A DNA stretch of 64,000 nucleotides. It comes from an uncultured delta proteobacterium (lineage in GTDB: Bacteria > Desulfobacterota > BSN033 > UBA1163). A program made the translations under genes and the position numbers. The notes beneath the pieces were generated by a model, which saw only the letters and a list, made by a program, of their open reading frames with translations, had not been told where the DNA came from and made no database searches. Positions 54,144-54,508 of this stretch are shown here, in pieces. Every line of letters starts with the position of its first letter. The first letter of the stretch is position 1. Location of the stretch: assembly GCA_963827685.1 (NCBI GenBank), contig CAWHBU010000003.1, positions 192,001 through 256,000 of the forward strand, given 5' to 3'.

Positions 54144-54508
54144 AGCTAACGAGCCTGTAGAAAAAGTCACTTTTTTAAAAAACGCTTCTTCTGCCGGATC
54201 AACAATAGGAAATTACTTTCTGTCATCAAAAGTTTTTCCGATCCTTGGTGCAATGTTAGTCTTTTCATGATATTTCTCTTACCACAAAACCCTATCACAC
54301 CATCCGGCTCCTTCACGCAAACTCCAGACCGTATCGATCGGAATAATCATAGTCCTTATATCTCGCCATCCAGTCCCTCCTAAGCGGCCCCGCTCTCTTT
54401 TCCGTTACTGATATGGCGATATTATCATGCTTCCAGGACTTTTTCTACAGCCTCAACGCCTGAAATCAGCGGTGGCTATCAGCCATTCGCTGCAATGACG
54501 TGTCAGCC
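54144..54508 (-). other. attC site (cassette 3), interrupted by the MITE
   Basis: Removing the MITE and one AAC restores AGCTAACGCCTGAAATCAGCG...CGCTGCAATGACGTGTCAGCC. Confidence 0.75.
54151..54454. mobile_element. 304-bp MITE inserted in the attC of cassette 3
   Basis: 18-bp terminal IRs GAGCCTGTAGAAAAAGTC / GACTTTTTCTACAGCCTC (17/18); AAC on both flanks; no ORF in the track. Confidence 0.85.

Follow-up and report, generated by a model that had tools for sequence, protein, structure and literature searches.

Introduction

Integron cassette arrays are usually seen as shaped by the integrase, and two parasites of their attC sites are known, both exotic in mechanism. One of them, the IS1111-attC group of insertion sequences (IS), has subterminal inverted repeats (IR) and is not known to duplicate its target. 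This group and the group IIC-attC introns are the only attC-targeting elements named in the cited passages of PMC3001079 and PMC11187229. IS1111-attC (ISPa21, ISPst6 and ISKpn4; IS1111/IS110 family) is a clade within its family that uses one attC position in one orientation (PMC3001079, PMC11187229), and its DEDD transposase is guided by a seekRNA (PMC11187229). The group IIC-attC introns, which combine a ribozyme with a reverse transcriptase, are described as a monophyletic subset of mobile elements that homes to the bottom strand of attC in a single orientation, opposite to cassette transcription, and both kinds of element are placed near the attC 5′ end, antisense to the cassettes, in the passages at hand (PMC3001079). 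Here we describe a 304-bp miniature inverted-repeat transposable element (MITE) in a stretch of 64,000 nucleotides (the window) from an uncultured delta proteobacterium (contig CAWHBU010000003.1, positions 192,001 to 256,000), together with its parent IS and their relatives elsewhere. Terminal IRs, GTT on both sides, the deletion structure of the MITE, intact partners, one site and one orientation across genomes and phyla, and the location in complete integrons are all observed, and we regard it as highly probable that a clade of IS1182-family ISs and MITEs homes to the GTT crossover triplet of the attC R′ box, driven by its transposase and in one orientation.

With IS1111-attC the present clade shares its standing within a family, the single attC position and the single orientation; unlike IS1111-attC, it has an IS1182-type DDE transposase, terminal IRs and a 3-bp GTT duplication, and it lies at the attC 3′ end (R′), in sense with the cassettes. 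A DEDD (IS110/IS1111-type) transposase is not present, the only open reading frame (ORF) of the parent being of the DDE_Tnp_1_6/IS1182 type. With the group IIC-attC introns it shares homing to attC by a subset of mobile elements in a single orientation; unlike them it is in sense, a reverse transcriptase ORF is absent from both MITE and parent IS, and the Rfam search of 53900-54700 gave nothing at E≤1. The view of an earlier note on this DNA, made from the letters alone, that the element resembles neither of the two is thus upheld.

Integron-associated MITEs, such as those of Acinetobacter class 1 integrons, are small and non-autonomous, have terminal IRs, flank whole integrons and may mobilise them; to our knowledge they have not been reported to insert into attC sites. 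ISs that target repetitive extragenic palindromes (REP) or bacterial interspersed mosaic elements (BIME), such as IS1397 and ISKpn1, belong to the IS3 and IS110/IS1111 families. These ISs (IS1397, ISKpn1, ISPa11) resemble the present elements in homing to short, structured, repeated palindromes (PMC3971601, PMC11187229, in the passages cited) and differ from them in target, which here is attC and not REP, and in transposase family. A transposase of the same family is that of IS1272 (IS1182 family), an element whose targets are inverted repeats able to form stem-loops; as far as the cited passages go, it has no primary-sequence preference, cuts bluntly with loss of the whole hairpin or a part of it, leaves no duplication and inserts in both orientations (PMC4923244, PMC5678879). 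For other palindrome-targeting IS1182 members both papers cite Siguier 2015. In contrast to IS1272, the present element uses one exact triplet of a single class of structured site, duplicates 3 bp, leaves the hairpin in place and inserts in one orientation only. Its parent transposase is about 25-28% identical to plasmid-borne transposases annotated IS1182.

The MITE and the attC that it splits

attC sites were described with a covariance model, R1, built from 13 uninterrupted attC-like sites of the genome that holds the window, element-interrupted sites being excluded. The MITE, the parts of the attC on its two sides and the two cassettes that meet there are as follows.

54151..54454, minus strand (transposase orientation): 304-bp MITE, IS positions 1-116 joined to 1616-1803
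54437..54454, minus strand: terminal IR of the transposase-proximal (5′) end, adjoining the attC body
54151..54168, minus strand: terminal IR of the 3′ end, adjoining the start of the downstream cassette
54455..54457, minus strand: target-site duplication, copy next to the attC body; reads GTT on minus, AAC on plus
54148..54150, minus strand: target-site duplication, copy next to the downstream cassette; reads GTT on minus, AAC on plus
54455..54508, minus strand: attC body (R″ GGCTGAC, L″, loop, L′, 8-nucleotide spacer, GTT of R′), from R1 match and fold
54144..54147, minus strand: last four bases of R′ (AGCT on minus), split from the attC body; first bases of the downstream cassette
54503..55159, minus strand: upstream-cassette ORF of 218 amino acids, no Pfam family; owner of the interrupted attC
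53092..54096, minus strand: downstream-cassette ORF of 334 amino acids, Mrr_cat restriction-endonuclease domain (E 8.7e-6), with the MITE at its 5′ end

Read along the minus strand, the stop of the 218-amino-acid ORF is followed by an imperfect palindrome that runs to GTT, by the MITE, by GTT and AGCT, by a leader and by the ATG of the 334-amino-acid ORF, and the MITE thus parts the attC body of one cassette from the start of the Mrr-like cassette. The arms of the MITE, 18 nucleotides each and 268 nucleotides apart, are complementary at 17/18 positions (94%). With up to 3 mismatches the IR 18-mer has 3 matches in the window, against a mean of 0.05 in shuffled sequence, where 0/100 shuffles reach 3. 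R1 matches the interrupted attC on the minus strand at 54451-54508 with 29.9 bits (E 4e-5 in the window, E 0.0027 genome-wide), a span that covers R″ through GTT and then 4 nucleotides of the MITE.

When the MITE and one AAC are excised in silico, an attC of 58 nucleotides results, with R″ GGCTGAC and R′ GTTAGCT, whose L″/L′ stem folds with a free energy of -11.7 kcal/mol (z -2.9, 300 shuffles). Its R″ has GAC instead of the consensus AAC, and a G-T wobble with GTT keeps the pairing; the TGA stop of the upstream ORF falls within this R″. Given the minus-strand direction of the cassettes, it is the GTT of R′ that stands on both sides, and its duplication is inferred from the single GTT present in each of the 13 uninterrupted attCs. 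The earlier note had claimed a MITE with 18-bp terminal IRs and AAC outside both, whose removal would restore a normal-looking attC and whose duplicated triplet would be the GTT of R′; the sequence bears out each of these points, and the MITE character of the element is confirmed by its composition from the two ends of a 1.8-kb IS. The MITE was also considered as a promoter source for the downstream cassette and found to have no support in that role, the promoter/terminator scan of 53950-54650 having yielded neither.

The parent insertion sequence and its deletion derivatives

In the genome of the window, a metagenome bin about 95% complete with 8% contamination (G000), the MITE sequence has 18 matches, which pair into five elements of 1800-1803 bp. 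Each of the five full copies, 98.5-99.3% identical to one another, has 18-nucleotide terminal IRs and an intact 517-amino-acid ORF as its sole ORF. The transposase scores 255.8 bits, below the NCBI curated cut-off of 270, against NCBIfam NF033551 (IS1182) over positions 34-486 of 488, whereas the next family (IS5) reaches 36.2 bits; its Pfam domains PF05598 (DUF772, 53.8 bits), PF13751 (DDE_Tnp_1_6, 80 bits) and PF01609 (DDE_Tnp_1, 39.8 bits) are all above their cut-offs. IS1182-family elements have one transposase ORF, a length of about 1.3-1.95 kb and terminal IRs, a layout that the parent fits with its 1800-1803 bp, single ORF and terminal IRs. Judged by sequence, the parent is most probably an IS1182-type DDE transposase element, and the earlier note, which had suspected ends of the IS1182/IS5 group and had proposed to seek an autonomous partner, pointed in the right direction on both counts.

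The MITE of the window lacks IS positions 117-1615 and is 88-92% identical to the IS in what it retains. The identical deletion junction is found in four MITE copies of three genomes (the window, C2:594200-594503 of the same genome, G002 and G005), which argues for a single deletion event followed by spread of the short form; three more MITE copies are present in G009. Because the MITE has no transposase, it would have been mobilised in trans. Further derivatives of 405 and 586 bp, solo ends and five mini-forms accompany these in the genome of the window, the mini-forms being the following.

C10:30214-30372: mini-MITE of the 158-160-bp class
C10:31100-31259: mini-MITE of the same class
C3:1074883-1075040: mini-MITE of the same class
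C4:261437-261594: mini-MITE of the same class
C5:314562-314721: mini-MITE of the same class

The mini-MITE class has the same IRs and is likewise met between GTT and GTTAG-type flanks. As a separate observation on the MITE at C2:594200-594503, a GTTAGCTCAC motif stands across it, 14 nucleotides from a GTTAGTGAG motif.

Insertion sites in the genome of the window

Every match to the IR 18-mer with at most 2 mismatches was tallied, whatever its flank. In this genome 26/30 IR ends are flanked by GTT or AAC, against a background of 2.7%, and C precedes GTT in 11/14 flanks while TAAC is found in 10/12.

The context of these ends was assessed with R1, whose candidates were gathered by an nhmmer pass and whose partial structure (R″/R′ plus L″/L′) was set by hand. 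In this structure 76% of the cells are paired, a value as high as which is reached in 0/500 shuffles, and slid controls give 28-37%. A fold-based heuristic attC scan of the whole genome (159 matches, almost unclustered) was too noisy and was replaced, and RNAalifold on the alignment of the 13 attCs gave zero pairs, since MAFFT misaligns the variable centre. R1 E-values are rough by construction, and the genome-wide counts are lower bounds, as 150 of the 934 first-look candidates were scored. R1 gives at least 36 matches at E≤1, among them all 13 training sites. Of the 23 matches outside the training set, nine stop exactly 3-4 nucleotides inside an element, and 8 of the 14 GTT-side ends adjoin such a match. 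The matches fall into 20 clusters on 8/14 contigs, and an IR end is present in 12 of these clusters. The attCs of this genome are dispersed as many small clusters and singletons and do not form one array.

Other genomes and complete integrons

A scan with one genome per species found 22 loci of parent-IS relatives, with the following amino acid identities.

'Uncultured delta proteobacterium' and Thermodesulfobacteriota: 83-92%
Nitrospirae and Thermodesulfovibrionia: 73-79%
'Bacterium BMS3Bbin05': 75%
Desulfobacteraceae: 65%

The tally of ends in other genomes comprises 28 loci, including the MITE-bearing loci of G002, G004, G005, G008, G009 and G016, and with at most 2 mismatches 49/50 ends are flanked by GTT or AAC; C stands before GTT in 24/25 flanks and TAAC is found in 22/24. 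At the 21 loci with a resolved IS 5′ end, R1 gives 13 same-strand matches that stop at the boundary, one match on the opposite strand and seven cases without match. R1 scores at element-occupied sites rise to 59.9 bits. No R1 match lies inside any IS copy, the matches stopping at the 5′ boundary, as expected of an element without an attC of its own.

A genome of the same genus (G010) holds seven full IS copies, all seven flanked by GTT on both sides, with attC-like stems upstream and GTTRRRY-like sequence downstream. These copies differ by 0-1 positions per 1800 nucleotides and sit in seven different attCs. At one locus (L114) the integron is complete: its minus strand carries a full-length intI (440 bits against a cut-off of 265), all seven R1 matches are on the plus strand, and two plus-strand IS copies each follow directly after an attC. 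The transposase is thus co-directional with the cassettes, whose direction is known from intI at this locus and, in the window, from the ORFs.

Within the plasmid collection, Pseudoalteromonas replicons carry the closest relatives (45% identity). The IR of a full Pseudoalteromonas copy shares the first 12 bases, the copy reads GTT-IS-GTTATAT, and GTTA follows 4/4 of the 3′ ends; full-length intI genes are present on the opposite strand, and the distance from them downstream to the IS copies is 6-8.5 kb. R1 gives weak matches on these loci (at most 20.4 bits), none adjoining the IS, and 9/9 of those at E≤1 are on the IS strand, so R1 is taken to be lineage-specific. IS1182 relatives at 45-46% in G009, G015, G005 and G032 (L034-L037) were considered as attC-homing and rejected, since they have another IR (GAGACTGTCG), no GTT flanks and no R1 match; because of this difference, attC homing would mark a clade and not all relatives at that distance.

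A tandem arrangement was seen at L077 1415-1845 (the same place as L046), where only a GTT separates a 406-bp MITE from the end of a second, different element, whose IR begins GAGGCAGTAAG. An occupied attC triplet can accordingly be hit again.

Some relatives belong to Pseudoalteromonas that are in culture and fully sequenced, and may therefore have gone through curation; together with the at least 120 protein clusters related to the transposase at ≥81% identity in public data, this makes it conceivable that the biology is right and known already, a clade member standing in ISfinder or TnCentral with its attC target noted. All 120 relatives listed are named 'transposase' at most, and full-text literature searches, whose scope did not extend to ISfinder and supplements, brought up no paper that connects attC targeting with IS1182-type elements or MITEs; papers in which both IS1182 and attC occur mention them, in the passages retrieved, in unrelated contexts only. 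We consider prior knowledge of this kind unlikely, with some weight nonetheless, and the IS/MITE group is apparently undescribed. The suspicion of the earlier note that this may be a little-described class of attC-targeting non-autonomous element fits both the targeting found here and the outcome of these searches.

Metagenomes

Metagenome contigs were scanned by the exact IR 18-mer alone, which yielded at least 80 loci; the counts of IR ends and R1 matches given for metagenomes here and below hold among the matches listed. The 87 ends with at least 4 nucleotides of flank comprise 52 preceded by GTT and 23 by AAC (75/87). A same-strand R1 match adjoins 17/49 GTT-side ends, 0/21 AAC-side ends and 0/12 others, and the loci that have a GTT-side end contain 35 further R1 matches, every one of them on the same strand. 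Insertion at random sites with no attC or AAC preference, which the earlier note had set against its own proposal, is not the pattern of the genome of the window (26/30), of other genomes (49/50) or of metagenomes (75/87), and R1 matches adjoin the elements in all three.

Contigs were also compared from four runs of sediment and wetland origin, and their loose ends concentrate at 54146-54148 and 54458, just outside both triplets. The joints seen in those contigs, for example from 54168 to 54437, correspond to shorter IR-to-IR forms, and the summed contig word depth of the IR stretch is 1189-11950 vs 2-8 for the left flank (two wetland runs of one study). IR-to-IR short forms are common in sediment and wetland metagenomes.

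Target of insertion

An alignment of 40 distinct body-side flanks has a conserved L′ box (C at -18, T at -14, A at -12), an 8-nucleotide spacer and C at -1, and downstream of GTT the A at +1 is conserved. The L′ box is CCGCTGA-like, and the target pattern can be written as L′, 8-nucleotide spacer and C-GTT-A. Since the features shared by the targets are those of attC itself, a reading of the sequence and a reading of the structure are inseparable here.

Many IS5/IS1182-type elements have short sequence targets, and the flanks share a C before and an A after GTT. A preference for the short sequence CGTTA, free of any structural targeting, might hence be imagined, the copies persisting in arrays because they are harmless there. 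Yet the genome of the window has 4,609 CGTTA sites, and 8 of the 14 GTT-side ends coincide exactly with the R′ of an R1 match. The probability of this is 2e-12 with these sites as background, on the assumption that 60 attC sites make up the target set, and 5e-26 if all 142,204 GTT sites are equally likely. The R″ boxes, moreover, offer the same GTT on the opposite strand, in some cases as CGTT, and are left unused: 0/52 R1 matches in the metagenome loci with a GTT-side end are in opposite orientation. The L′ box stands at its fixed 8-nucleotide distance in the 40 distinct flanks, and the seven copies of G010 are too recent for sorting by selection. A bare CGTTA preference is therefore very improbable, and the homing of a clade of elements to the attC R′ triplet is retained.

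Several observations weigh against that reading. Four of the 30 ends in the genome of the window are exceptions (the C1 pair with AAT/ATT, C10:31100 with TTT and C4:101847 with CAC), as are 1/50 ends in other genomes and 12/87 metagenome ends, some of which may be chance 18-mers. The second 304-bp MITE (C2:594200-594503, 88% identical) is flanked by AAC and AAA and has no R1 match. The sorting of ends into GTT-side and AAC-side relies on the flank itself. R1 misses 7/21 loci elsewhere and 32/49 metagenome GTT-side flanks, and since it was trained on one genome, the attC status of the flanks that it misses is unproven. An empty site was not found in 14 genomes of the genus, where the 1.2-kb stretch around the MITE matched only element copies and not the flanking cassettes, and no contig of the four sediment and wetland runs joins across 54151-54457, contigs being unable to prove absence. 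The assignment to IS1182 carries the score below the curated cut-off, and, as to the integrase, G000 and G010 are each about 95% complete, so that an intact intI could be unassembled.

Transposase or integrase

The site is the exact crossover triplet of the integrase IntI, the orientation is fixed, the IS end after GTT reads GAGG, like the RRRY of R′, and several host genomes have a full-length intI. IntI itself might thus place the element, an excised IS circle with GTT at its IR-IR junction being recombined into attC at the G/TT crossover like a cassette. Two elements, at C1 of G000 and at L134 in a metagenome, speak against this, the latter a mini-element with AAT on both sides. Crossover at such a variant site would give ATT on one side and the GTT of the donor on the other, whose G would stay; both elements have ATT (AAT) on both sides, which fits a true target duplication and does not fit an integrase crossover. 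The seven near-identical copies in seven attCs of G010 occur where only an intI fragment was found (C1:720662-721045, model positions 188-315), and the five copies of G000 at 98.5-99.3% identity likewise (C3:782919-783275, positions 197-315); such bursts speak for the transposase. Both fragments are C-terminal, and the relatives G011 and G016 have full-length intI genes. The lack of R1 matches within the IS, which thus has no attC to offer, points the same way. Placement by IntI is in our view very improbable, and insertion by the transposase remains the preferred reading. The IS was also considered as the cause of the intI truncations in G000 and G010, of which there is no sign: neither break carries an IR, and the two loci are not similar to each other in nucleotide sequence.

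We propose that the transposase, and not the integron integrase, chooses the site. In the model, the DDE transposase would make a 3-bp staggered cut at GTT, which would leave GTT on both sides, and the intact copies would provide in trans the transposase that moves the MITE, which has both IRs within its 116 + 188 bp of IS ends. At an occupied site, GTT and the purine-rich GAGG of the IS end come directly after the attC body. The duplicated GTT and GAGG might keep the attC body competent for recombination, in which case the IS or MITE would become the leader of the downstream cassette.

The cassette array and its upstream edge

The array to which the interrupted attC belongs, and the IR that stands upstream of it, are the following.

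49855..55183, minus strand: cassette array with at least 8 attCs including the interrupted one, spaced 360-1190 bp
49855-49918, minus strand: uninterrupted attC by R1
50407-50476, minus strand: uninterrupted attC by R1
51137-51224, minus strand: uninterrupted attC by R1
51847-51936, minus strand: uninterrupted attC by R1
52600-52662, minus strand: uninterrupted attC by R1
55118-55183, minus strand: uninterrupted attC by R1
52958-53084, minus strand: uninterrupted attC by heuristic fold scan
56058..56082, minus strand: GCCTAAC and a solo degenerate 18-nucleotide IR (56065-56082, 2 mismatches), about 1.6 kb upstream in cassette direction

The ORFs of the array are on the minus strand, and 9/10 are without Pfam family, the tenth being the one with Mrr_cat. 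Past the solo IR at 56065-56082 the similarity to the IS ends and unrelated sequence begins, and the R1 search of the window gave no match beyond 56058-56082. As far as its letters tell, 56058-56082 is what remains of a further element that had inserted at the GTT of an R′ box. Because the solo IR stands there, followed neither by IS similarity nor by a further attC, the upstream edge of the array would be this IS remnant, in keeping with a break-up of arrays through recombination or deletion at IS copies. That arrays are rearranged when IS copies recombine with each other is described in the cited passage of PMC11023631. No intI is near the array, and the sole intI trace in the genome, the fragment in G000 named above (TIGR02249, 191 bits), lies about 527 kb off; the array is hence regarded as an attC cluster lacking an integrase.

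Taking these elements together, we tentatively put forward a third, mechanistically distinct class of attC-homing element ('IS1182-attC'), present in at least Thermodesulfobacteriota, Nitrospirota and Gammaproteobacteria, whose transposase would read the L′-R′ half-site and cut at the crossover triplet of the integrase. Mimicry of RRRY would keep the attC usable, the element would travel as a cassette leader, and recombination between copies would break arrays into scattered clusters without integrase. As a whole this scheme is possible and rather doubtful. If it were true, a common lineage of DDE-type ISs with abundant MITEs would be a third shaper of cassette arrays, and a concrete route to integrase-less attC clusters would be at hand, as exemplified by the solo IR at the edge of the array in the window. 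It also opens to direct test the question of how insertion by a DDE transposase can be specific for both site and orientation within a structured target of about 60 nucleotides. In practical terms, annotation tools will mis-call interrupted attCs and cassette boundaries, and the repeats of the element break metagenome assemblies.

Other features of the window

Elsewhere in the window, a tandem duplication of about 250 bp (74-84% identity) occupies 18370-18808; each copy starts a small ORF, whose first residues resemble, by eye, a TatA-type signal anchor. Low-complexity repeats comprise a CCAAATCCCAAG-like motif at 4023-4765, which forms two blocks at a distance of 640 bp, and tandem repeats of the 8-bp unit AATTCCTT at 13345-13388. 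Finally, two stretches of about 300 bp within 2479-4514 recur within 11382-13226, about 8.8-8.9 kb apart and with 71-73% identity, a recurrence whose sequence suggests a duplicated gene block.

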